64,000 nucleotides of DNA from Candidatus Omnitrophota bacterium. Its GTDB lineage: Bacteria > Omnitrophota > Gorgyraeia > B26-G9. Positions 7,851 to 63,767 of this stretch are shown here, piece after piece. The notes under the pieces were generated by a model that saw only the letters and a list, made by a program, of their open reading frames with translations, searched no databases and was not told the DNA's origin. Every line of letters begins with the position of its first letter. Positions within the stretch are counted from its first letter, which is position 1. The stretch spans positions 92,350-156,349 of the forward strand of contig JBDRJV010000028.1 in NCBI GenBank assembly GCA_043814605.1, given 5' to 3'. Both the position numbers and the translations under genes were made by a program.

Positions 7851-7925
7851 CAAGACATCCTATAATAGGAAAGTAGGAGGATGTCTTGATTATATAGATT
7901 AAAATTATTTTATAGAGAGATTACA
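7851..7925 (+). ncRNA. 5' half of the repeated leader element family A (hairpin aagacatcct..aggatgtctt plus the 'gagattacag' arm), here split by the GxxExxY gene
   Basis: Near-identical to 63069-63150. A promoter-like ttgaca (7787) with ggtataat (7810-7817) lies upstream. Confidence 0.5.
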
Positions 7926-8234
7926 GTGATTAAGGAGAGGGATCTGTTAACTGAGAAAATAATCGCTTGTGCTTATAATGTACATAGTAAACTTGGTCCT
8001 GGATTTAGCGAAAGTATATATCATAAGGCATTAAAAATAGTGTTAAAAGAACAGGGTTTAAAGTATCAAACTGAGAAAAGTTTTGATGTTTGTTTTCAAG
8101 GTAAAAACATTGGTAAATGTAGGCTCGATTTAGTCATCGCTGACAAGATTGTAATAGAACTGAAAGCTCTTAGCGGTAATATTCCTGCTGTATTTGAATC
8201 ACAGGTTTTATCTTATCTAAAAGTATCAGGATAA
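7926..8234 (+). CDS. GxxExxY family protein (PD-(D/E)XK-like), GTG start
   Basis: Motif GPGFSESIYHKAL (G-x-x-E-x-x-Y); 102 aa; sits exactly between the two halves of leader element A. The second copy of the element (63069-63252) lacks the gene. Confidence 0.7.
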   Translation: MIKERDLLTEKIIACAYNVHSKLGPGFSESIYHKALKIVLKEQGLKYQTEKSFDVCFQGKNIGKCRLDLVIADKIVIELKALSGNIPAVFESQVLSYLKVSG

Positions 8235-8282
8235 AAGAGCGGGTTTTTGATAAGCTTTGGCAATAAGAGTTATCAAGTTAGA

Positions 8283-8373
8283 AGATTAATGGTTTAATCT
8301 TCGTAATCTATTGTTAATCGTGGTAATCAGGGATAATCCAATCCAGGAGTGAGGATTATACCAGGAGGTATAA
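8283..8373 (+). ncRNA. 3' half of leader element A (cgtaatc arm plus hairpin gggataatcc..ggattatacc), immediately before the RBS of the 8374 gene
   Basis: Matches 63166-63252 almost base for base. Hairpin ends 12 nt before the ATG and is followed by aggagg. Confidence 0.5.
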
Positions 8374-11230: not shown

Positions 11231-11555
11231 AATTCTCCTATTTAAAAGTAATAAAATATAGCATATTATTAAAGTTTATGCAATAAGCCTGGCTGTACGC
11301 TTTGAGGAATAGTTCTAAAGGTATTGTGAACAACCCTTCATTGTCTAATGATCTTAAAAATTTTCTGATTTTTATATAAATTTCTATATTCTTAAACTAT
11401 TATTTAACAATATGTTACAGCAATAATTACTCAAGCTTAAATAAAAGTTTTCAAACCCTTGTAAAATCTTAAAGCTTATGGTACACTTTAAAACCTTTTT
11501 TATATATAGAAAAAATAGTCAATAAATAATTAATCAAAAAGAAAGAAAATTAAAA

Positions 11556-12179
11556 ATGGTAAAAATTAATAAAAGTATATTTAGCCGGGCGATTTATTAT
11601 CTAGAGCATCATGAGAAATCCATGCGGGTTCCAGCCTGGATAATCCGCCATCAAAAAGAGGTATTTTTTATTGCCTATCGTATGGGAGAGGTTTTAGGGT
11701 TTGCTTCGGAAAACTTAACTGCCTTAGCAATTACCGCCCGTTTTCACGATATTGGCAAAAGCAATATTGACCCGGGCATTATTAATAATCAAGGTGTTCT
11801 TAGCGATGCGCAGCGTTATGAAGTTTTTGAGCATGTACTTTTTTCTTATCAAATTCTAAAGAAAAAAGGCATAAATTCAAAGATTATTTTAAAAAGCGTG
11901 TTTCATCATCATGAGAATTATGACGGCAGTGGTTATCCGGATAAATTGCGTGCAACAGAAATCCCTGTTTTTGCCCAGATTTTAAGAATTGCGGATTCCT
12001 TCAGTGCCATGCTTGGAGCGCGGCCTTACCGCAACCCTAAGGGAAAAAATTTCAAATCTGCTCTTACGCAAATCGAAAACGGCCGGGGAACATTCTATAA
12101 CCCTAAGATGGTAGATGTTTTTTTAAGGATATTACAAACACCGGATAAAAGCGATTTAATCCCCGGGTTAAACTATTAA
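11556..12179 (+). CDS. Stand-alone HD-GYP domain c-di-GMP phosphodiesterase
   Basis: HDIGK and HHHENYDGSGYPDKL motifs. Confidence 0.8.
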   Translation: MVKINKSIFSRAIYYLEHHEKSMRVPAWIIRHQKEVFFIAYRMGEVLGFASENLTALAITARFHDIGKSNIDPGIINNQGVLSDAQRYEVFEHVLFSYQILKKKGINSKIILKSVFHHHENYDGSGYPDKLRATEIPVFAQILRIADSFSAMLGARPYRNPKGKNFKSALTQIENGRGTFYNPKMVDVFLRILQTPDKSDLIPGLNY

Positions 12180-16915: not shown

Positions 16916-17485
16916 AAAATAAAATCCCCTTTTCAGGGGTTTTTATTTCATAGAGGGAAACGAAGTTTTTACCTATGGGCGCTCGTTCCGCCGATGGCGG
17001 GAGCTCGCTGTCACTCCTTTCCATAATGTTGAATTCTTAGTCAAAAAAGATGGGGAGTATTATCCACTTTTTATTTAAAAATCTTTGCCCATCATAGTAA
17101 TTCCTTTAAAATCAATAAGTTAAGTTAAAACAGTTGACAAAGGAAGATTTAGAATGTATACTTAGTAATAGGATTTACAAAGTTTTTATTAACATTTGGA
17201 CAGTTAAATTGAAAGGTGCAAGATAAAGAGACAGGGAAAAAGAAAAAGGAAATTATATTATTTTTGATTACTGAAAAGTAATTATTAAAATTTGTTATTA
17301 GTAGCCCCTATCTCCCAATTGAATACCCTTCAATTATTAAATATCCGAAAAGGCAAACCCTAAGCAATTAGGGGACCCCGGCGATAATTATTCCGGGTCC
17401 CGCCAAAGGCGGGAGCAAAGCTACGGGTCTTTTATCCAAAGATTGCCGAGCATACCGATAACGCGCAGATTAAAAATTGGACAAG

Positions 17486-17541
17486 ACAGCCGAGCTGCCG
17501 AAGTATCTAGATGATGCTTTAGTAGTTCGGCTGTTTTTTTA
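17486..17541 (+). terminator. Hairpin + T7 (acagccga..tcggctgt-ttttttt), 75 nt upstream of the C25 peptidase start; terminator or attenuator of an upstream small transcript
   Basis: 8-bp stem plus T-run. Preceded by GC hairpins ggaccccgg..ccgggtcc and cccgcc-aaagg-cggg in the tRNA-peptidase spacer. Confidence 0.5.
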
Positions 17542-28509: not shown

Positions 28510-28565
28510 TACAGCGTCTAGCGTTTAGCGATTAGCGTTTAGAAAAAAGAAATTTCTCGTTATTT

Positions 28566-28636
28566 GCTACTCTCTACTCGTTGAGAACATTAATATTAAT
28601 TTTAGCGAAATTCCCGCAAGGGCGGGGCTACTTTAA
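28566..28636 (+). repeat. Repeat element D copy 1 (71 nt: gctactctctactcgttgagaacattaatattaattttagcgaaattcccgcaagggcggggctactttaaa), ends 10 nt before the 28647 start
   Basis: Second copy at 32243-32313 (2 differences). Contains hairpin cccgc-aagg-gcggg and the rc of the agtagagagtagc motif. Preceded by the 'tagcgtttagcgattagcgtttag' micro-repeat (28518-28541). Confidence 0.7.
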
Positions 28637-31875: not shown

Positions 31876-32242
31876 ACGATAACCGATCTTTGGGAATCAA
31901 ATAAAAACACATCCTATGAAATAATGTTTATTTTCTGGCAATTTATGCCCGAAGACTATGCCGCCAAAAAACCATCCTTGGTTTATGGCGTTTCGACATC
32001 CTGCCAGCCTCGCCGTTACAGTGAGGTTGGCATGAAGATGGCTAGGCGGGTCTTCATCTTCGTACATAAATTAAAGAAAATCACACATAATTTCATTATG
32101 GCTGCTTTTTTTATTTAATTTTCAAATAAGTAATTAAATCAAAAATTGTTCGCAAACTGTAGTAATATTATAAATAGGGTAAAGGGAATCAAGATAAGGA
32201 GAAAGTGAAAAAATCTCGCTACTTGCTTGTGCCCGTAAGGGT

Positions 32243-32313
32243 GCTACTCTCTACTCGTTGAGAACATTAATATTAATTTTAGCGAAATCCCGCAAGGGCG
32301 GGGCTACTTTAAA
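32243..32313 (+). repeat. Repeat element D copy 2, ends 10 nt before the GTG start at 32324
   Basis: See 28566-28636. Confidence 0.7.
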
Positions 32314-33268: not shown

Positions 33269-33341
33269 TGATGCTAGATCCTTGATGCAAGATACTCGTT
33301 TGTTTTTTTAGTGTTTAGAATCCAGGATCCAGAAGCCAGGA

Positions 33342-34664
33342 TTGATAATGAACCAAAAAATTGCCCTTATCTTAGCTCCGCCATTTTGGCCGAATTTACC
33401 GCCGCTTAGTTTAATCAGTCTGGCTAGCTTTCTTGATTTTCATTCCGTAGAATCAAAATTGTTTGATTTAAATAATAAAATTTTTAATTTAAGCGATGAT
33501 AGCTTAAAAAAAGAGTGGCTAATCAGTGCAAATAAACCACTAGAAGATAAAATGCTGCATTTATTAAAAACAAAATTTAAAAAACAAATAACTCATGTTT
33601 ATGAACAGCTTTTAACCTATGATATTGCAGGATTTTCCTGTTTTAGAAGTAATTTTCTGATATCTTTAACAATGGCGCAATATTTGCGTCAAGTCAAAGG
33701 TAAAAATATAAAAATTATTTTTGGCGGGCCGCAAATTACTAATCTGTATTTTAAAACAAAAGGGGAATATACTGCGGAATTATATAAGCTCGCGAATTTA
33801 ATCGTTACCGGAGAAGGAGAAAAACCATTATTAGATTTTATCTGCAAAAAGACAAAGCAGAAGATAATCTGCTTTGATCAGTTAAAAAATATAGGTGATT
33901 TTAACTATATCAAAGGGTATAAAAATATTAATAATAATCTTTATCCTAAAAAACAGGCGATGCCTTTACTTTTTTCCCGCGGCTGTATGCGTCAATGTAA
34001 ATTCTGTTCAGAAAAATTATTATACAGAAATTTACGCATAAAAAAAATAGAAACAATAATTAGTGAAATAAAATATTTGCAAAAGGAAAAAGGAGTTAAA
34101 CAATTTATTTTTCACGATTCCATGTTAAATGCGGACTTAAAGGAATTAGAAAAATTATGTGATATGATAATTGAAAGTTTTGGGTCTATCCCCTGGGAAG
34201 CTCAAATGGGGGTAAGAACAGATATGAGCGAAGAACTTTTATTTAAAATAAAAAAAAGTGGCTGTTATAACCTTTTTATTGGGCTTGAATCCGGATCGGA
34301 CAATACATTAAAAAATATGAACAAAGGTTTTACCGCAGCTCAAGCAAAAAAATTTTTCAAATCTTTGAATAAAGCCGGGTTATTTTTTGGCGTGAGTATG
34401 ATTGTGGGATTCCCCCAGGAAACAGAAGAAGATTTAGAAGAGAGTTTAAAATTTTTAATTGATCATAAAAACATAATTCCAAAAATTGAGCAGATTAATC
34501 CCTTTGTTTATTATGCGGGCACAGCCGTGGATAAAAATCTGGGGTATCGCGATAATCCCGAAATTTTAGCCAAAACAGATTATTTTATTAGCAGGCTTAA
34601 ACAGGAAAAGTTCAAAATGACAAAAGCATTCTTAAATAATCTGGTAGAAAAATATAAGGAATAA
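33342..34664 (+). CDS. B12-binding-domain radical SAM protein
   Basis: CMRQCKFC (CX3CX2C) plus N-terminal B12-binding-like region (IKIIFGGPQIT). Confidence 0.7.
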   Translation: MIMNQKIALILAPPFWPNLPPLSLISLASFLDFHSVESKLFDLNNKIFNLSDDSLKKEWLISANKPLEDKMLHLLKTKFKKQITHVYEQLLTYDIAGFSCFRSNFLISLTMAQYLRQVKGKNIKIIFGGPQITNLYFKTKGEYTAELYKLANLIVTGEGEKPLLDFICKKTKQKIICFDQLKNIGDFNYIKGYKNINNNLYPKKQAMPLLFSRGCMRQCKFCSEKLLYRNLRIKKIETIISEIKYLQKEKGVKQFIFHDSMLNADLKELEKLCDMIIESFGSIPWEAQMGVRTDMSEELLFKIKKSGCYNLFIGLESGSDNTLKNMNKGFTAAQAKKFFKSLNKAGLFFGVSMIVGFPQETEEDLEESLKFLIDHKNIIPKIEQINPFVYYAGTAVDKNLGYRDNPEILAKTDYFISRLKQEKFKMTKAFLNNLVEKYKE

Positions 34665-36826: not shown

Positions 36827-37040
36827 GCTAATATAATAACATAGAACAAGTGATAAAGAGGGATAATAAATAATCCTGTAGGGACAGCCCCGACGAAGGA
36901 GGGGTGCGAAGCAGGCACTGCCCTGTCCTTCAACAATAGTACAAAAATAATAATATAGACCAGAGGCATTGCTTGTCTGCTAACAAATAAAAACACATCC
37001 AGTGAAATTATGTTTATTTTCTAATAATTTATCCGGTCGT

Positions 37041-37247
37041 GTCTTGTGTTTATTCACACCAGACCACTCGTTGGTCCCCAGCGAGGCCCAACTTCGTTCG
37101 GCGATCCGTGTTCGCGCTTGAGGCTTTAATAATTTTTTAGCCTCAAACCATGCCTGCTCACACTTCTCAACGTCCGGCTTAGAATAAACACATAACACAT
37201 AACAGCTATGAGCTATCAGCCATAAGCTAGTTACTGGCAACCTTTTT
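37041..37247 (+). ncRNA. Structured RNA element B copy 1 (~200 nt, hairpin-rich, ends in a T-run), candidate sRNA
   Basis: Paralog at 40964-41168 (~85% identity). Compensatory changes preserve the stems (gttgg..ccaac vs gttagg..cctaac; gtgtttattc..gaataaacac vs gtatttattc..gaataaatac); loop-only changes in the gaggc-loop-gcctc hairpin. Confidence 0.55.
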
Positions 37248-37465
37248 CAGAATAACACACACATTTACTATGGTCTATGGTCTGTTGTCCCGAATGAAGT
37301 TACTTCTTTAGCTGCCTCATCGGGATTCCGCGGCTGCGGGATCTTTGGTCTGGACGGTTTTTTGTTTCTTGAAAAAAGGACTTAAAAGGGATATAATTGC
37401 GGAAAAGAAACGATAAATTAACCTGCTTAAAAAACTAAAATTGGTTAATATGGGACGCAAGTCTT

Positions 37466-40087: not shown

Positions 40088-40141
40088 TTGTGTGTTTGGT
40101 TAATATCCGTAAAGAAAAAAATTAAAAATAAGGTACAAAAA

Positions 40142-40864
40142 ATGGGAGAAGTAGAACTAAATATTAAACTTTTAGAAGTTTCACAAAATGCTGTTTCAGT
40201 GATTTATGCAGCTTGCCGGCAGTGTTACTCTGCTAACTTTGCCGGGGATGTTTTTAGCCAAGTACAGGATTCAAAAGAAAAAAGAGAAGAGTTTATTCGC
40301 AAGATTATTGCTTCAGGACATGAAAGCCCGCTTGAACATGTAAAATTTACTTTTGCAATTGAAGGGGTTTCCCGGGCTCTAACCCATCAACTGGTTAGGC
40401 ACCGTATTGCAAGTTATTCACAGCAAAGCCAGCGCTATGTAAAAGAAACAGATTTTGACTATATTGTGCCGCCTGCAATTAATTCGGAAAAGGAATTAAA
40501 GAATGAATTTTTAAAAATAATGGGAAATATCCAGCAAAGTTATAATAAAATACTGGAAATTTTTAAAACAAAAAATACAACCGGAGAAAAAGCTAATCAA
40601 GATGCCCGGTTTGTTTTGCCGCAAGCTGCTGAAACGAAGATTGTGGTTACGATGAATGCGCGGGAATTGCGGCATTTTTTTAAATACCGCTGTTGTGCAC
40701 GGGCACAATGGGAAATCAGGAATTTGGCCGAAAATATGCTGAAGATCACTAAAGCCCAGCTGCCTTGTATTTTTGAAAATGCCGGGGCAAAATGTGTGGA
40801 GCTTGAATATTGCCCTGAGGGTGAAAAATTCTGCTGCGGCCGCTATCCGCCAAAAAAATCCTAA
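40142..40864 (+). CDS. thyX: Flavin-dependent thymidylate synthase ThyX
   Basis: RHRIASYSQQSQRY ThyX motif. Confidence 0.85.
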   Translation: MGEVELNIKLLEVSQNAVSVIYAACRQCYSANFAGDVFSQVQDSKEKREEFIRKIIASGHESPLEHVKFTFAIEGVSRALTHQLVRHRIASYSQQSQRYVKETDFDYIVPPAINSEKELKNEFLKIMGNIQQSYNKILEIFKTKNTTGEKANQDARFVLPQAAETKIVVTMNARELRHFFKYRCCARAQWEIRNLAENMLKITKAQLPCIFENAGAKCVELEYCPEGEKFCCGRYPPKKS

Positions 40865-40963
40865 ACTCTAAAATCTTCTTCCTAAACCTTAAGTAAAAGT
40901 TATTTTATCTTACAGTAGCTGATATTTTTTTCGTTCAATTTAAATTTATTTTTCACAAACACT

Positions 40964-41168
40964 GTCTCGTATTTATTCACACCGGAACACTTGTTAGGCC
41001 CCGGCGAGGCCTAACTTCGTTCGGCGATTTGTGTTCGCTCTTGAGGCTTTATTTATCTTTTAGCCTCAACCCATGCCCGCTCACACTGCTCAACGTCCGG
41101 CTTTGAATAAATACTCGCCAGTAGTATCAACTTTAAAGAATAAAGCTTGTAACTGTCAGCTTTTTTTA
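40964..41168 (+). ncRNA. Structured RNA element B copy 2, ending in a clear intrinsic terminator (aaagct-tgtaactgtc-agcttt + T7 at 41141-41168)
   Basis: See copy 1. Lies 100 nt after the thyX stop. Followed by the micro-repeat gctaatcgctaaacg (41199-41213, rc of the 28518 motif). Confidence 0.55.
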
Positions 41169-41225
41169 AGGATGATGTATTTTCTCTATTCGCTGACCGC
41201 TAATCGCTAAACGTTATTTTATTAA

Positions 41226-41253
41226 TTGACAAACCAAGAGCAGTTGATATAAT
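41226..41253 (+). promoter_or_regulatory. Promoter of the cobalamin-riboswitch operon (TTGACA-N16-TATAAT)
   Basis: ttgaca 41226-31, tataat 41248-53. Confidence 0.6.
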
Positions 41254-41257
41254 ACAA

Positions 41258-41500
41258 AACAAATACAGGTGCTCTTAGGAAGAGCTTAAAAAGGGAAGTA
41301 TGGTTTAAAGCCATCACGGTCCCGCCGCTGTAACTGAGGACGAAACTTATAAAGCCACTTTCTTAGCATTTAAGATGGGAAGGTATAGGGAGTAGGATGA
41401 TTCAGAAGTCAGAAGACCTGCCTGTTATTAATAAGTGTATAGCAGAAATGGATTTTCGCTATCCTCGCGGAAGGATGAATTAAAATCAGGGTGCAATCCT
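41258..41500 (+). promoter_or_regulatory. Cobalamin (AdoCbl) riboswitch
   Basis: aaaaAGGGAAgtatGGTttaaagCCatCACGGTCCCGCCgCTGTaa core (B12-box-like), plus downstream aaGCCACTTtcttagcatttaagatGGGAAGGTa and aGTCAGAAGACCTGCC segments matching the Rfam cobalamin consensus. Confidence 0.8.
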
Positions 41501-41535
41501 TTAGGTCATTTACAGGACTTGGAGGATTTTTTTTT

Positions 41536-42474
41536 ATGCAAACTTATGTAAGTATCGCTCGGGAAGTTAAAAGCAAAATAATTCAATCCATAAAAAATAA
41601 TAAAGCCCAAGGGATTCTTTTTTCCGGCGGTCTAGATACAGGGATTATTGTCGCAATATTTCCTAAGTTACCGTGTATAAATATCCAGCTAGAAAATTTC
41701 AGCACAGACTTGACGTATGCCCAAGAATTAGGAAAAATTTTTGATCTAAAAATTTACTTCCTAACAATCAATGCACAAGAAGTTATTGATGCAATTCCTG
41801 AGGTTATCAGAATCCTTAAGAGTTTTGACCCGGCGCTTCCGAATGATTTAGCCGTATATTTTGGGCTAAAATTTGCTAAAGAAAAAGGCATTAATTCTTT
41901 ACTTACTGGCGACGGGGCAGATGAACTATTTGCCGGCTACGATTATATGCGTCAAACTCCTGGCCTAGCAGAATATATCCGATATATTTCCCGGCGGATG
42001 CTGTTTAGCTCAAATAAATTAGGAGAATATTTAGGGGTTGGTATCAAACAGCCGTTTATCAGTAAAAGTATTGTTGATTTAGCGGTCAATGAATTATCTT
42101 GTGATTTGAAGATTGCCAAGTATGATGAAAAAATATTCGGCAAATGGATACTGCGTAAAGCGTTTGAAGATATCCTTAGCCCAAATATTGCTTGGCAAAC
42201 GAAAAGGCCTTTAGAAATTGGATCAGGCATGACTCAAATCAGAAAAATTATCGCTGATAAAATTTCAGATAATGAATTTGCTAAAAAGAAAAAAGAATAT
42301 GGAATAGATTTTTACACAAAGGATCATTTTTATTATTATGAAATTTATAAACAGGTAATCGGAGATATCCCGATACCTTTAGCGGATCAAGAAATATGCC
42401 CAAGCTGCGGTGCGGGATTTTTTATCGGGTCATTACATTGTTATACCTGCGGCTGGGTAAAAAAATGGGAATAA
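41536..42474 (+). CDS. Asparagine-synthetase-like PP-loop ATP pyrophosphatase (amidating domain only, no Ntn glutaminase) with C-terminal zinc ribbon
   Basis: SGGLDTG PP-loop; AsnB C-domain-like length; CPSCG..CYTCGW zinc ribbon; first gene after the B12 riboswitch (RBS ggagga). Confidence 0.6.
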   Translation: MQTYVSIAREVKSKIIQSIKNNKAQGILFSGGLDTGIIVAIFPKLPCINIQLENFSTDLTYAQELGKIFDLKIYFLTINAQEVIDAIPEVIRILKSFDPALPNDLAVYFGLKFAKEKGINSLLTGDGADELFAGYDYMRQTPGLAEYIRYISRRMLFSSNKLGEYLGVGIKQPFISKSIVDLAVNELSCDLKIAKYDEKIFGKWILRKAFEDILSPNIAWQTKRPLEIGSGMTQIRKIIADKISDNEFAKKKKEYGIDFYTKDHFYYYEIYKQVIGDIPIPLADQEICPSCGAGFFIGSLHCYTCGWVKKWE

Positions 42475-43145
42475 AAGGGAAGGCAGAAAACAGAATGAAA
42501 TCATTTGTTTCTTGGAGCAGCGGTAAAGAAAGCGCATTAGCTCTTTACCGAATGCAAAAAAAAACACAGGTTTCTTGTCTTTTGAATATGGTCTCCGAAG
42601 ATAAAAAAAGAGCCCGGTCTCATGGGATTGAAGTTGAGTTAATCAAAACCCAATCAGAAGCTCTGGGCTTACCGCTTATTTTAAAAACAAGTACTTGGGC
42701 AAATTATGAAGCGGTTTTTAAGAAAACGCTTATTGAATTAAAGTCAAAAGGTATTAATTCTGGGATTTTTGGGGATATTGATATGCCTGCGTATAAAAAT
42801 TGGGTAAAAAAAGTTTGCGCCTATGCCGGGATAAAGGCTTATTTACCCCTGTGGCAGGAACCAAGAAAAGTTTTAATGGATGAATTTATCCGGTTGGGAT
42901 TTAAGGCGATAGTTATTTGTGTAAAAACAGAATATTTAAATAAAAATTGGCTGGGACGCGTAATTGATAAAGAATTTATTAAAAAACTAAAAACATTAAG
43001 GAACGTAGATCTGTGCGGCGAAAATGGCGAATATCATACTTTTGTCTATGATGGACCGATTTTTAAAAAACCCGTAGAGTTTGTAAAGAATAAAATCATC
43101 AATAAAAAAGAACATTTATTCCTGGAATTAAACAAAAAAAATTAA
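42465..43145 (+). CDS. DUF71/Dph6-like PP-loop ATPase (diphthine-ammonia-ligase family, MJ0570-like)
   Basis: VSWSSGKES PP-loop characteristic of the ATP_bind_4/DUF71 family; start uncertain (42465 or 42495). Confidence 0.55.
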   Translation: MGIKGKAENRMKSFVSWSSGKESALALYRMQKKTQVSCLLNMVSEDKKRARSHGIEVELIKTQSEALGLPLILKTSTWANYEAVFKKTLIELKSKGINSGIFGDIDMPAYKNWVKKVCAYAGIKAYLPLWQEPRKVLMDEFIRLGFKAIVICVKTEYLNKNWLGRVIDKEFIKKLKTLRNVDLCGENGEYHTFVYDGPIFKKPVEFVKNKIINKKEHLFLELNKKN

Positions 43146-46373: not shown

Positions 46374-46425
46374 AAAAATATTAGCTACAGGTGTTAGGTT
46401 ACAAGTTTCAGGCCAAAACATTTTT

Positions 46426-46530
46426 ATACATCTGCGGCCTAAAACCGCGCCCATTTATGGCGCGGATAAAAGGAAGCTGCTTGAATATTCCACCCCAGGA
46501 ACCACGGGCTTTAGCTTGTGGGGGTTCCAT
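46426..46530 (+). ncRNA. Structured RNA element C copy 1 (~105 nt)
   Basis: ~92% identical to 49503-49607. Stem acggg/cccgt in copy 2 becomes acggg/cttgt in copy 1, so the transitions convert G-C to G·U pairs on the + strand only; conserved hairpin ccgcgcc-atttat-ggcgcgg. Confidence 0.55.
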
Positions 46531-46746
46531 TTATGACTTGCAGCTTGATTCCGGATACTTGTAACTTGAAAGGTGGTGATCAAAGATTAGAAAATGTGAT
46601 TTTTTGCTAGGGGTTTTTATTCAATAAGTGAAAAAACAACGTTAAGAGAGAAGGAAATAACCAGATAAACAAAGGAACTCCCGTAACCTAATTGTATATA
46701 AAACTACAATTAAGAATTCGGGGACTGCCCCGCAACGGTAATATTT

Positions 46747-46810
46747 GGAAGTAGCAAGTAGAGAGTAGCAAGTAGAGAGAATCCAAAAAAATCTCGCTAC
46801 TCGGATCTCG
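46747..46810 (+). repeat. Heptamer-based repeat element F (agtagcaagtagagagtagcaagtagagag ... tctcgctactcgg ... cttgctact), imperfect palindrome upstream of the TonB-dependent receptor gene
   Basis: Shares the agtagagagtagc and aaaaaatctcgctact motifs with 32215-32260, with element D (as reverse complement) and with 63716-63750 (agagtagagag x4). Confidence 0.6.
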
Positions 46811-49428: not shown

Positions 49429-49502
49429 CCATCCATGCATCTACGAGGTGGAAATATGGTTGGATTTGACAAAAATTGACTAAAAAGAGTACAATGAATT
49501 TA

Positions 49503-49607
49503 TACATCCGCGGCCTAAAACCGCGCCCCTTTATGGCGCGGATAAAAGGATGCCGCTTGAGTATTCCACCCCAGGAACCACGGGCTTTAGCCCGTAGGGG
49601 TTCCATT
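49503..49607 (+). ncRNA. Structured RNA element C copy 2, 24 nt upstream of the DJ-1/PfpI gene
   Basis: See 46426-46530. Confidence 0.55.
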
Positions 49608-49630
49608 AATTTATAAAGAAACGGAAAAGA

Positions 49631-58844: not shown

Positions 58845-59324
58845 GTGAAAATGATTGTAAAAAATAATATGCAGACACAAATTTTATCTGTGAAACGCGG
58901 GACAACTCTAACCCAATTATTAGGGTTATTTAAAGATTTCCACAGTTTTCCAGTGGTTCCGGTTGTAGATAATGATAATGTATTAATCGGCATTGTGCAT
59001 ATTAAAAGTTTTTTTGAAATTTTTCAACCTACGTATCAAGATATTTTAATGCGTAATCCGCTTTCGATGATCAGCCGGGCGCCGGCTAATATTTTTGATA
59101 TTGATATTGACGAAGGTTTGGGATTTTTGGTATTAGTTGCGGATATTATGGATAAAAATATTGTAAAAATTAAAGAAAACCAGGAAATCAGAGCAGCTTA
59201 TGATTTAATGCATTTACATGGCTGGGATGCGATTCCTGTGGTTGATGACCAAAATAAGTTAATGGGGATTATTAGTACCTTCGATATTATGATAAAAATT
59301 TTTCAAGAAAAAGGATTAATATAA
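58845..59324 (+). CDS. CBS-pair regulatory protein (unit 1 of tandem duplication)
   Basis: Two CBS motifs; ~80% aa identity to 60591-61064. Confidence 0.7.
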   Translation: MKMIVKNNMQTQILSVKRGTTLTQLLGLFKDFHSFPVVPVVDNDNVLIGIVHIKSFFEIFQPTYQDILMRNPLSMISRAPANIFDIDIDEGLGFLVLVADIMDKNIVKIKENQEIRAAYDLMHLHGWDAIPVVDDQNKLMGIISTFDIMIKIFQEKGLI

Positions 59325-59360
59325 AAACATGAAAAAATATAAGAATTTGAAAGCACGATA

Positions 59361-60536
59361 ATGAATATAATTTTAGGTGTGGGTATTATTTTAATCTTTG
59401 GCCTTTTTTCCGGGAAAATTGCGGAAAAAGTTAAAACCCCGGCGATTACTGCCTATCTTATTTTAGGAATATTAATCGGTCCTTATGCTTGTAATCTTAT
59501 TTCCGGGAATGTAATCAAAATTTCCGGGATTATTTCTAATATTGCTTTAAGTTTTATTGCGTTTAGCATTGGGCAGAATTTTTCTGTGCAGACTTTCCGG
59601 GAAGTTGGTAAGCAAGTATTATGGATTTCAATACTGGAAGCCTTGGGAGCCTGGATAGTAACAGTTGTGGCTTTGGTTTTTTATAAAGTTCCTTTGTATT
59701 TAGCGCTTATTTTTGGGGCAATTGCTGCGGCAAGTGCTCCGGCAGCAATAATTATGGTTGTGCGTGAATATAAAGCACGGGGAAAATTTGTGGATGTTTT
59801 AATGGGTGTGGTTGCGTTGGATGATGCCTGGGGATTGATAATTTTCTCTATTTCCATGGCTTTATCAAAGGCAATGTATGCACATCTTTCCACGAGCGTA
59901 GGGAATGTTTTAGGTAAGGCATTTTTTGAAATTGGCGGTTCTTTTCTGCTGGGAGGAGTTTTGGGAGTTGCCTTAAGCCGGATGGGAAGGTTTTTAAAAA
60001 ATCAAACAGAACTTTTAATTTATACAGTAGGCATAATTTTTATCGCAACTGGATTAGCGCTGTATTTTCATGTCTCTGTTTTGCTCACCACCATGTTTTT
60101 AGCGGCTGTAGTTGTAAATTTAAATAGTGAAAGTTTTAAATTTTTCGATGTTTTAAGCCATATTGACTGGCCGATATATCTTATATTTTTTGTTTTAGCC
60201 GGGGCCAGTTTAGAAATTGATTTATTGATGAAAATCGGTATAATAGGTATTGTATACATAATTTTTCGCGTTGTGGGAAAAATTATCGGTACTTATTTAG
60301 GGGCAAAAATTTCTGGAGCAAGCTCTGATATTCAGAAATATTTAAGCTTAGGCTTATTGCCGCAAGCCGGAGTTGCTTTAGGAATGGCTTTAATTGCCCG
60401 GGATCAGTTTCCTGAATTTGGCGGTATTATTTTTACAACGGTTGCAGCGACAACAGTGATCTATGAAATAATTGGTCCTTTTTTTGTTAAGATGGCCCTA
60501 ATTAAGACAAATCAGATTCAAACACTTTCACATTGA
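59361..60536 (+). CDS. Cation:proton antiporter (unit 1)
   Basis: Polytopic; N-terminus AITAYLILGILIGPY; paralog of 61067-62275. Confidence 0.75.
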   Translation: MNIILGVGIILIFGLFSGKIAEKVKTPAITAYLILGILIGPYACNLISGNVIKISGIISNIALSFIAFSIGQNFSVQTFREVGKQVLWISILEALGAWIVTVVALVFYKVPLYLALIFGAIAAASAPAAIIMVVREYKARGKFVDVLMGVVALDDAWGLIIFSISMALSKAMYAHLSTSVGNVLGKAFFEIGGSFLLGGVLGVALSRMGRFLKNQTELLIYTVGIIFIATGLALYFHVSVLLTTMFLAAVVVNLNSESFKFFDVLSHIDWPIYLIFFVLAGASLEIDLLMKIGIIGIVYIIFRVVGKIIGTYLGAKISGASSDIQKYLSLGLLPQAGVALGMALIARDQFPEFGGIIFTTVAATTVIYEIIGPFFVKMALIKTNQIQTLSH

Positions 60537-60590
60537 TAATGTTATTAAATTTTTTTTCTCTAATTTACTAAAATTTACTAAGGGTAAATT

Positions 60591-61064
60591 ATGCAAGTAA
60601 AAGAAATAATGCAGACACCTGTTTTAAGTGTAAAACGCGGGACAACGCTTTCCCAGTTGTTAGAATTATTCAAAGACTTCCATAGCTTTCCAGTGGTTCC
60701 AGTTGTAGATAATGATAATATATTAATTGGCATTGTACATATTAAAAGTTTTTTTGAAATTTTCCAGCCGCATCATCAAGATATTTTAATGCGTAATCCG
60801 CTTTCAATGATCAGCCGGGAGCCGACTAATATTTTTGATATTGATATTGAAGAAGGCATGGGATTTTTAGTATTAGTTGCGGATATCATGGATAAAAAAA
60901 TTGTGAAAATCAAAGAAACTCAAGATTTAAAAGAAGCGTATAATTTAATGCAATTACATGGACGGAATATGGTCCCGGTTGTGGATGATCAGAAAAAACT
61001 GGTAGGGATTATCAGTGTTTTTGATATTGTTATGAGATTGTTTAAAGAAAAGGGACTTTTGTAG
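60591..61064 (+). CDS. CBS-pair regulatory protein (unit 2)
   Basis: Paralog of 58845-59324. Confidence 0.7.
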   Translation: MQVKEIMQTPVLSVKRGTTLSQLLELFKDFHSFPVVPVVDNDNILIGIVHIKSFFEIFQPHHQDILMRNPLSMISREPTNIFDIDIEEGMGFLVLVADIMDKKIVKIKETQDLKEAYNLMQLHGRNMVPVVDDQKKLVGIISVFDIVMRLFKEKGLL

Positions 61065-61066
61065 CA

Positions 61067-62275
61067 ATGAATGCTCTCCTTGGCATAAGCATAATTCTTT
61101 TGTTTGGCCTTTTATCCGGAAGAGTTGCGGAAAAAGTGAAAACTCCGGCAATTACTGCCTATCTTGTATTAGGAATTCTTCTTGGGCCTTATATGTTTAG
61201 TTTTGTGCCCAAGAGTATCCTCAATTCTTCAGGATTAATTTCTAATTTTGCGTTAAGTCTAATTGCTTTTAATATTGGGCAGAATTTTTCTAAAAATATT
61301 TTTCAGCAAGTTGGCAATCAGGTATTATGGATTTCTGTATTAGCAGCTTTTTCTGCCGGAGCCTTTGTTGTCTGCGGATTATTTTTGTTAGGACTGCCTT
61401 TATATATTGCTTTAATTTTTGGCGCAATTGCTACCGCGACTGCACCGGCAGCGTTGATTATGGTAATCCGGCAGTATAAAGCAAAGGGGAGATTTACAGA
61501 AATCTTAATGGGGGTTGTGGCCATTGATGATGCTTGGGGCTTGATTGCTTTTTCGGTTTGCTTGGCTTTTGCCCGTAAAATTCATTTTAATCATACTTCT
61601 AGTTTTTTTCAAGTAGTGTTAAAATCTACAGCTGAAATTGCCGGGTCTCTTTTTTTGGGAGCGGTTATTGGTTTTATTTTTGTAAAATTTTCTAAATATA
61701 TTTATAGCCAAATAGATTTATTAATCTATACTGTCGGAACTATTTTTTTTACTGCAGGACTGGCAATACATTTTCATTGGTCAGTACTTTTAGCGTGTAT
61801 GATGCTTGCAGCAGTGATTGTTAATTTTGACCGCGAAAATTTTCGATTCTTTGATATTTTACAAACTATTGACTGGCCGATATATCTACTATTTTTTGTT
61901 TTAGCCGGAGCTAATTTAGAAATTGAACTTTTAACTAAAGTTGGCTTAATTGGTACGGTATACATTGTGATGAGAATTGTCGGAAAATGCGTGGGCACAT
62001 ATTTAGGGGCAATTGCCTCAGGGGCCGGATCCGACATCAGAAATTATATGGGAATAGCCCAAATGCCTCAAGCGGGCGTGGCTTTAGGCATGGCGTTAGT
62101 TGCTAAGGATAGTTTTTCTGAGCTGGGCGGCATGATTTTTACCACCATTGCAGCGACAACAATTATTTATGAAATAATCGGCCCTTTTTTTGTTAAATTC
62201 GCCCTACAAAAAACTAACCAAATACCTCAGGCAAAACCGACAAAATTAGAAGTCCCGGTGGAAACTTCTTCATAA
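61067..62275 (+). CDS. Cation:proton antiporter (unit 2)
   Basis: Paralog of 59361-60536. Confidence 0.75.
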   Translation: MNALLGISIILLFGLLSGRVAEKVKTPAITAYLVLGILLGPYMFSFVPKSILNSSGLISNFALSLIAFNIGQNFSKNIFQQVGNQVLWISVLAAFSAGAFVVCGLFLLGLPLYIALIFGAIATATAPAALIMVIRQYKAKGRFTEILMGVVAIDDAWGLIAFSVCLAFARKIHFNHTSSFFQVVLKSTAEIAGSLFLGAVIGFIFVKFSKYIYSQIDLLIYTVGTIFFTAGLAIHFHWSVLLACMMLAAVIVNFDRENFRFFDILQTIDWPIYLLFFVLAGANLEIELLTKVGLIGTVYIVMRIVGKCVGTYLGAIASGAGSDIRNYMGIAQMPQAGVALGMALVAKDSFSELGGMIFTTIAATTIIYEIIGPFFVKFALQKTNQIPQAKPTKLEVPVETSS

Positions 62276-63068: not shown

Positions 63069-63252
63069 AAGACATCCTATAATGGGAAAGAAGGATGATG
63101 TCTTGATTATATAGATTAAAGTTATTTTATAGGGAGATTACAGTAATTAAGCAGAAGGATCCATTAGATGGTTTAATTTTCGTAATCTATTGTTAATCGT
63201 TGTAATCAGGTATAATCCAATCCAGGAGTGAGGATTATACCAGGAGATTCTT
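63069..63252 (+). ncRNA. Leader element A, intact uninterrupted copy (~185 nt) in the 5' UTR of a CBS-domain gene
   Basis: Hairpin aagacatcct..ggatgatgtctt (63069-63105); long-range arms gagattaca/cgtaatct; hairpin ggtataatcc-aatccaggagtga-ggattatacc (63209-63241); then caggag RBS and ATG at 63253. Colinear with 7851-7925 plus 8283-8373. Confidence 0.55.
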
Positions 63253-63708: not shown

Positions 63709-63767
63709 TTTATGGAGTAAAGAGTAGAGAGTAGAGAGTAGAGAGTAGAGAGAAAGGGGTGTAAGGC

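Follow-up and report, generated by a model that had tools for sequence, protein, structure and literature searches.

The closest described counterparts of the element reported here are the small structured repeats of bacterial spacers and the sibling small RNAs (sRNAs). We compare the repeat families from background knowledge and by their descriptions. Correia/NEMIS (Neisseria), ERIC/IRU (enterobacteria), bcr1 (Bacillus cereus group) and RUP/BOX (pneumococcus) are non-coding, 100–200 nt long and strictly intergenic, and the stable fold of each is closed by its terminal inverted repeat. They are present or absent between related genomes, and unrelated repeat modules are piled up in the same spacers. 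Repeats of this kind, like those resembling miniature inverted-repeat transposable elements (MITEs), are often co-transcribed with the flanking genes, and divergence that preserves the fold is also known for the ERIC and Correia types. Sibling sRNAs such as PrrF1/2, OmrA/B, Qrr and LhrC occur as diverged copies a few kilobases apart, in which a structured core is conserved, the flanks are not, and there is no coding potential. Both descriptions bear on element B, which is present twice in a 64-kb stretch (64,000 nt, hereafter the window) of the Candidatus Omnitrophota contig JBDRJV010000028.1.

Element B is a genuine duplicated, non-coding, hairpin-rich element, and it shares the features listed above for both classes, co-transcription being probable. 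In contrast to sibling sRNAs, which have recognizable conserved promoters and strong Rho-independent 3′ terminator hairpins, neither is found for element B, which exceeds them in size, has more of its length base-paired and shows no obvious conserved single-stranded seed. We favor, at a probability of about 0.45, the reading that element B is a small structured repeat of spacer DNA, non-coding and restricted to its lineage, of the MITE-like/ERIC/Correia/bcr1 kind and probably co-transcribed with its neighbors. To our knowledge, the Omnitrophota, an uncultivated phylum, have essentially no RNA-level annotation beyond universal families and riboswitches, and a literature search for Omnitrophota repeats or non-coding RNAs returned nothing relevant.

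Two diverged copies and their fold

The two copies of element B are direct repeats, 3.9 kb apart, that align without gaps over 152 nt (37040–37191 and 40963–41114) at 87% identity in a repeat search of the window. The match between them is strong by both blastn (E value 4e-45) and nhmmer (1.4e-34), and no third copy is found in the window by blastn, nhmmer or a covariance model run with filters off. The conserved cores are as follows:

37040..37193, unstranded: element B copy 1 conserved core, 154 nt, 49% GC, 86–87% identical to copy 2, ungapped
40963..41116, unstranded: element B copy 2 conserved core, 154 nt, 49% GC, 86–87% identical to copy 1, ungapped

An earlier note made from the letters of this DNA (the sequence-only reading) had given ~85% identity over 37041–37247 and 40964–41168. 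Identity reaches 86–87% only in the 152–154 nt core, and over the full span it falls to 79% (167/211). The linker on the 3′ side of the core, 26–30 nt long, is 47% identical, which is the random level, and the left flanks of the two copies are unrelated (p = 0.56). The copies become similar again in a 24-nt block ending in a T-run (19/24 identical, p = 0.011 against shuffles). Homology between the copies breaks off abruptly at a terminal inverted repeat that, within the window, is seen only at the element ends. This repeat, GTRTTTATTC/GAATAAAYAC, is 10 bp long and perfect in both copies, its motif occurs only at the four element ends, and by inspection it reaches ~16–19 nt if mismatches are allowed. 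With 49% GC against 35% for the window and a C-rich plus strand, the core forms a GC-rich island within AT-rich spacers, and the flanks of each copy are unique to it. All six reading frames have stops in one or both copies, none of them being conserved, and the 20 substitutions in the 152-nt repeat are evenly distributed over codon positions.

Both copies fold strongly on either strand. Against dinucleotide shuffles, the minimum free energies (MFEs) of copies 1 and 2 are −49.8 and −51.0 kcal/mol on the plus strand (z −5.6 and −4.9) and −59.5 and −58.2 kcal/mol on the minus strand (z −5.1 and −5.7). The plus strand had been assumed by the sequence-only reading, but the better consensus fold lies on the opposite one (−54.3 kcal/mol and 51 pairs, versus −39.4 kcal/mol and 42 pairs). 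This advantage stems from four invariant G-U pairs and one G-U/G-C site, and the z-scores of the two strands are equal. The consensus fold has a closing stem, formed by the terminal inverted repeat, and a Y-shaped interior of one long and one short hairpin arm. Its parts are listed here, with the closing stem, the second stem and the two arms as in the minus-strand consensus and given in plus-strand coordinates:

37046..37055, unstranded: copy 1 closing stem, left arm and terminal inverted repeat, GTGTTTATTC; pairs with 37182–37191, ten pairs, one covarying
37182..37191, unstranded: copy 1 closing stem, right arm, GAATAAACAC, in the consensus fold
40969..40978, unstranded: copy 2 closing stem, left arm, GTATTTATTC; pairs with 41105–41114, one pair being A-T where copy 1 has G-C
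41105..41114, unstranded: copy 2 closing stem, right arm, GAATAAATAC, in the consensus fold
37058–37063 with 37173–37178: second stem of copy 1
37066–37097: short arm of copy 1, carrying the GTTGG...CCAAC hairpin
37070..37092, unstranded: copy 1 short-arm hairpin GTTGGTCC...GGCCCAAC; copy 2 equivalent 40993–41015
37099–37172: long arm of copy 1, with an invariant 8-bp hairpin, TTGAGGCT/AGCCTCAA, at its tip
37108..37163, unstranded: copy 1 long-arm section, consensus helices 4 and 5, in which GTGT..GC/GC..ACAC encloses the invariant 8-bp hairpin TTGAGGCT-13 nt-AGCCTCAA; copy 2 equivalent 41031–41086

Two fully compensatory pairs separate the copies, both inside the core and both G-C to A-T swaps: G37048A/C37189T in the closing stem and G37073A/C37089T in the GTTGG...CCAAC hairpin of the short arm. 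In that hairpin, T37075G also turns a mismatch into a pair. One G-U pair becomes G-C, three substitutions sit in the 13-nt apical loop of the long arm, and CC37106-7TT falls at a loop position. The three sequence pairs quoted by the sequence-only reading are correct. All 51 of the 51 consensus pairs are held in both copies, compared with only 31–43% when the partners are slid by 1–3 columns. A consensus built from the two sequences themselves is bound to favor compatibility with them. To allow for this, we made 500 random versions of one copy, each carrying as many transitions and transversions as observed, and scored the survival of the fold. The real second copy keeps the fold better than nearly all of the random versions, with p = 0.002–0.006 on the minus strand (MFE, consensus energy) and p = 0.008–0.07, depending on the measure, on the plus strand. 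The divergence between the copies thus preserves the fold beyond chance, an effect that is significant but modest and that comes, at low power, from two sequences in one metagenome-assembled genome. To this extent the selection on RNA structure that had been read from the base changes holds. Template switching or arm-to-arm conversion in inverted repeats can also yield paired changes without selection at the RNA level, and two copies that differ by compensatory changes are no proof of an sRNA.

Beyond the linker, the tail blocks can be read in both directions:

37224..37247, unstranded: copy 1 tail block, AAGCTAGTTACTGGCAACCTTTTT; weak hairpin and T-run (plus) or TTGCCA, −35-like (minus)
41143..41166, unstranded: copy 2 tail block, AAGCTTGTAACTGTCAGCTTTTTT; minus strand reads CTGACA-18-TAAAGT

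The block ends in T5–T7 at a similar distance from the core in both copies. At copy 2 it had been called a textbook terminator, a description that does not survive: the hairpin has six base pairs, two of them G-C, below a 10-nt loop, folds at −4.6 kcal/mol (z ∼0) and is not called by a terminator scan. The copy 1 tail hairpin (−7.8 kcal/mol) likewise has z ∼0 against shuffles, and the one plus-strand call of the scan is a 5-bp stem at copy 1. Real terminators in the clade, such as those in the riboswitch expression platforms of relatives, are GC-rich hairpins. No plus-strand promoter is called upstream of either copy, and no convincing sigma-70-like promoter is conserved between the copies on either strand. 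The only candidate called by the promoter scan is CTGACA-18-TAAAGT, on the minus strand at copy 2, with 9/12 consensus matches. Its copy 1 equivalent, TTGCCA-17-GATAGC, matches at ~8/12 by reading, fails the −10 rules and is not listed by the scan. The real promoters in the window are near-consensus.

Genomic setting and neighboring repeat modules

The gene context is as the sequence-only reading described it. Copy 1 lies between the gene for an RF-1-domain ArfB (minus strand) and a PAS-GGDEF-HD gene (protein MFH1460204.1 at NCBI), and copy 2 between the gene for ThyX (MFH1460205.1) and a cobalamin riboswitch (41250–41439). The nearest relatives are distant, with 72–74% identity in ThyX and 63–65% in the PAS protein. 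Four distinct syntenic relatives were compared: loci L024, L044, L045 and L046/L047, the last being one place seen twice with the same PAS protein. The gene order common to the relatives is Cpn10 ... radical SAM, arfB (minus strand), PAS gene and B12 operon.

Element B is absent from all four relatives, and the spacers that hold it are enlarged. The arfB-PAS spacer measures 639 nt in the window, compared with 173 nt in L024, 155 nt in L044, 179 nt in L045 and 161 nt in L046/L047. Within it, the arfB-proximal TATAATAACAT block and the PAS promoter block are ∼500 nt apart, as against tens of nucleotides in the relatives (by inspection). On the other side of the gene pair, the B12 promoter starts 361 nt after thyX in the window; it begins at the first base after the thyX stop codon in L024, and by inspection lies within roughly 45–95 nt of the preceding stop codon in L044–L046. 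Judged from these loci, both copies evidently lie in additional DNA, specific to this lineage, on either side of an ancestral gene pair. At 63–72% protein identity, the spacers of the window and of the relatives have almost no sequence in common, and the exact empty sites cannot be aligned. The absence of element B from the relatives argues for insertion, but at such a distance it counts only weakly against a young RNA gene. Two further differences in gene content were seen at these loci. A thyX gene between the PAS-GGDEF gene and the B12 operon is present only in the window (40088–40864), L024 and L027, and is missing there in L044–L047. Asn_synthase-like and Diphthami_syn_2 genes between the B12 riboswitch and btuF occur only in the window (41491–43145), when compared with L024, L027 and L044–L047.

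The promoters of both downstream units lie beyond element B. That of the PAS gene, TTGAAA-17-TATAAT at 37369–37397, is downstream of copy 1 in a block conserved in all relatives; that of the B12 operon, TTGACA-16-TATAAT at 41226–41253, is downstream of copy 2, just before the cobalamin riboswitch. Right beside the start codon of arfB, the window (36827–36850) and all the relatives carry the conserved TATAATAACAT block, which could be a promoter giving a leaderless or near-leaderless arfB mRNA. Because this putative promoter block sits at the start codon, copy 1 would fall outside the arfB transcript. The scan finds no terminator between thyX and copy 2, and thus copy 2 is most likely transcribed as part of the thyX 3′ region.

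Searches beyond the window return no homolog. The covariance model R1, the minus-strand model of element B, finds only the two window copies when run with filters off on the window, L024 and L025, and has no match in L024–L043 (145 kb, default filters) or L044–L047 (52 kb, filters off). Over these ∼197 kb of related Omnitrophota loci, searched partly with filters off, there is thus no model or sequence match to element B. A two-part pattern has five chance matches in 185,579 species genomes, all to the pattern words only and in GC-rich genomes. A 26-nt pattern has no match in JGI metagenomes. Three patterns in IMG/VR give either no match or an unrelated 17–21 nt word common to viral contigs, and blastn against plasmids and phages finds none. 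The sequence-only reading could place the element in no known family and proposed an Rfam search. No Rfam 15 family matches either copy at gathering thresholds, and relaxed lists (E up to 10) hold only snoRNA, sRNA and lncRNA noise at 11.9–18.2 bits, against family thresholds of 37–90. ARAGORN finds no tRNA or tmRNA.

Copy 1 directly adjoins a second repeat module:

36975..37036, plus strand: D14 module, directly left of copy 1; AT-rich, contains GTGAAA-17-TAATTT

D14 recurs at 31889–31950 and, inverted, at 32062–32126 (nhmmer E values 2e-13, 7e-15 and 2.5e-9 for the three copies). There the inverted copies form ∼62-nt terminal inverted repeats around a GC-rich core of ∼118 nt, together making up element X (31889–32126); such bracketing arises in 0/1000 shuffles. 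The core of X is closed by a terminal stem and contains three hairpins (−49 kcal/mol on the plus strand, z −4.7). X sits in a different spacer, which is only 25–33 nt long in two relatives, and D14 together with the first X hairpin has a weak counterpart at a different locus in the distant Omnitrophota relative L046/L047 (L046 4237–4400, minus strand). The anatomy of X, with ∼62-nt terminal inverted repeats, appears to be that of a MITE, and X looks like a MITE or a portable RNA unit. X and B are alike in having GC-rich multi-hairpin cores of similar size, a closing stem and a lineage-specific spacer, and X and copy 1 both have D14 immediately to the left and a T-run ∼45 nt after the core. In X, however, D14 stands at both ends as 62-nt inverted repeats, whereas B has it only to the left of copy 1; another genome holds a weak relative of X but none of B. 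No homology is detectable between the X and B cores, no D14 is present at copy 2, and the B tails are not significant as degenerate inverted D14 copies (p = 0.05–0.8).

D14 can be used in argument in two ways. The spacer of copy 1 appears to be a mosaic of small repeat modules, which therefore favors a repeat-element origin for B. D14 may also be taken for a promoter, with an A-tract followed by [A/G]TGAAA-17-[T/C]AATTT and a consensus match of ∼7/12. The start predicted from it falls 1–3 nt before the closing stem of X and of B copy 1, which would therefore favor an sRNA at copy 1.

Repeat element or sibling RNA pair

Several features support a small repeat of the MITE-like/ERIC/Correia/bcr1 kind. 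Element B is non-coding, has no promoter or terminator of its own and ends sharply at a terminal inverted repeat, and by comparison with syntenic relatives both copies seem to lie in DNA that those relatives lack. The repeat-mosaic context, together with the lack of homologs in our searches, fits a young, lineage-specific family. On such a model, the 154-nt GC-rich module would have been copied into the two spacers flanking the ancestral PAS-GGDEF/thyX unit. Having neither promoter nor terminator, it would be expressed only through read-through transcription from its neighbors. In the thyX 3′ region, the stable fold of copy 2 may then act as an RNA structure, for example as a 3′-end protecting or processing hairpin cluster. 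Were this the case, element B would be an ordinary, previously uncatalogued family and a marker of spacer growth in this Omnitrophota lineage. Other observations weigh against a repeat of this kind. There are two copies in 64 kb, only 3.9 kb apart (P ∼0.12 for random placement, by our own calculation), and local duplication explains this spacing better. No target-site duplication is found: at the shared boundaries there is no direct repeat of at least 3 nt, only AT-rich chance matches at non-equivalent positions. The window carries no transposase, integrase or reverse-transcriptase domain in open reading frames (ORFs) of at least 110 aa, and we know of no parent insertion sequence and of no sequence similarity to the described families. 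The interior of element B is a branched set of independent, GC-rich, covarying hairpins, unlike the simple imperfect palindrome, or fold-back, of small structured repeats. Substitutions in loops combined with compensatory changes in stems are the pattern of a selected RNA, and the one-sided 24-nt tail block and the promoter-like D14 aimed at copy 1 suit a gene better than a symmetric transposon.

The main rival reading, somewhat less probable, is that the copies are two sibling sRNA genes of a new family. Each would give an RNA of ∼155–210 nt whose ends pair in the closing stem, the pair having arisen by local duplication, and the RNAs would act in trans or bind a protein. If the plus strand is the transcribed one, D14 would launch copy 1, and the RNAs of both copies would stop near the T-run; if it is the minus strand, the −35 region would come from the tail block. 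The strong folds (z −4.9 to −5.7) of GC-rich islands in AT-rich spacers are consistent with this, as are the fold-preserving divergence, on the minus strand above all, the two compensatory pairs and the 100% retention of consensus pairs. So are the conserved tail ending in a T-run, the start predicted from D14, and the spacing of the copies, since separation by a few kilobases is frequent among sibling sRNAs. However, no plus-strand promoter is found, and the minus-strand candidates (9/12 at copy 2, ∼8/12 at copy 1) compare poorly with the near-consensus real promoters. The tail hairpins are no more stable than shuffled sequence, D14 is lacking at copy 2, and a strand cannot be assigned. Complementarity to the 48 translation-initiation regions in the window, measured as RNA duplex energies, is no better than for shuffled elements, and no other genome among those searched carries element B. 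The sRNA family proposed by the sequence-only reading is therefore one of two live explanations, sound in that the element is structured, duplicated and non-coding, and weakened in that promoter and terminator are not conserved. That reading had also named an insertion-sequence or MITE terminal repeat as a finding that would speak against it; the perfect 10-bp terminal inverted repeat, the spacer DNA absent from four relatives and the D14 module of X abutting copy 1 all go part of the way there. The two explanations overlap, in that repeats of the favored kind are often transcribed and act as RNA structures. If transcribed, element B would count as one of the first non-coding RNAs of a single lineage to be proposed for the Omnitrophota, and, if truly a sibling pair, one under structural selection in a phylum without described lineage-specific small RNAs. 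A wider proposal, which we consider unlikely, is that B and X are both free-standing structured RNAs of new families, ∼130–210 nt long, with paired ends and a Y-shaped or three-hairpin core, launched from D14 as a portable 60-nt promoter module. Transcription of element B would, together with X and D14, point to such portable promoter-plus-RNA units.

The remaining explanations are much less probable. A plus-strand, cis-acting attenuator or riboswitch-like leader, controlling read-through into the PAS-GGDEF gene at copy 1 and the B12-regulated operon at copy 2, would account for a layout like that of an aptamer and expression platform (a P1-closed junction, a 26–30 nt linker and a hairpin with a T-run) and for the position of both copies upstream of plus-strand genes. 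We nevertheless regard it as improbable, given that the near-consensus promoters of both downstream units lie downstream of element B, the terminators are weak, every relative with the same genes lacks the element, and no Rfam family matches. Still less credible is a DNA-level recombination site, either attC-like, as in integrons, or one of a pair of att-type direct repeats flanking a mobile PAS-GGDEF/thyX cassette. Direct repeats do bracket a two-gene unit, and element B resembles attC sites (60–140 nt) in its imperfect inverted repeats, which fold as single strands and contain GTTRRRY and RYYYAAC motifs, as in the short hairpin GTTAGGC...GCCTAAC. In attC, however, R″ (RYYYAAC) is 5′ and R′ (GTTRRRY) is 3′, whereas here the order is reversed and the motifs lie just 7–9 nt apart in a single 23-nt hairpin, not at the ends. 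The divergence of 13% is far from the identity of att sites, and no integron integrase is encoded among the window ORFs of at least 110 aa. The order of arfB, the PAS gene and the B12 operon is ancestral in all relatives, which lack the repeats; the flanked genes are thus not cassettes, and a cassette bounded by att-type repeats is ruled out. At the bottom of the scale we place a minus-strand small protein gene or pseudogene, and equally an artifact of chance or assembly. An 86-codon minus-strand ORF does span copy 1 (36980–37240), but two stops interrupt that frame in copy 2, and almost all of the substitutions in it would be non-synonymous. Its translation has no homolog in 5.8 billion protein clusters, and among 1.84 billion representatives it matches just two unrelated repeat proteins, marginally and spuriously. 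With these stops, the even spread of substitutions over codon positions and the lack of homologs, a coding origin was rejected. The identity and the fold are far beyond chance, and the unique flanks of each copy speak against an assembly error.

Other repeats and features of the window

Further repeats are found in the spacers of the window. Tandem arrays of 7-nt units lie at 28513–28542, 33320–33342, 37187–37229, 37268–37283, 41198–41216, 46749–46779 and 63715–63752, often just upstream of genes or promoters; their units are AGCGTTT, ATCCAGG, AACACAT, AGCTATA, CTATGGT, AAGTAGC and GAGTAGA. One of the arrays begins inside the right arm of the copy 1 closing stem. A 50-nt block (TGCTACTCTCTACTCGTTGAGAAC...) is 98% identical between 28565–28614 and 32242–32291, just upstream of Cpn10 and at the start of an unannotated 336-aa ORF, respectively, and contains the reverse complement of GAGTAGA-type heptamers.

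A second duplicated GC-rich element, 92% identical between 46423–46534 and 49499–49610, has no Rfam match and folds with z −1.5 and −3.1. The copy at 49499 directly follows an apparent TTGACA-17-TACAAT promoter (∼49466–49494, by reading) and lies upstream of a DJ-1/PfpI gene; the other is upstream of a TonB-dependent receptor. This element is a candidate cis-regulatory leader. The regions 7852–8367 and 63069–63246 have two adjacent repeat blocks in common, with 90% and 96% identity. The first region lies upstream of a 122-aa ORF without annotation (8374) and the second upstream of a CBS-domain gene (63253); the blocks may be duplicated 5′ regions or leaders. At 58845–62275 a gene pair encoding a CBS-domain protein and a Na+/H+ exchanger is duplicated in tandem, with 70–87% DNA identity between the pairs.

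In the related locus L024, a tandem array at 11240–11600, downstream of the cobalamin riboswitch, has a unit of roughly 50 nt by eye (GGCGGATAAACAGGATGCAA...) and is called as a 162-aa ORF on the opposite strand. Finally, ahead of the gene for a Peptidase_C25/dockerin protein of 1443 aa, the window has a c-di-GMP-I riboswitch (17342–17502) whose score of 38 bits lies slightly above the threshold; the window also carries several c-di-GMP-related genes (PAS-GGDEF-HD, PilZ and HD-GYP-like).

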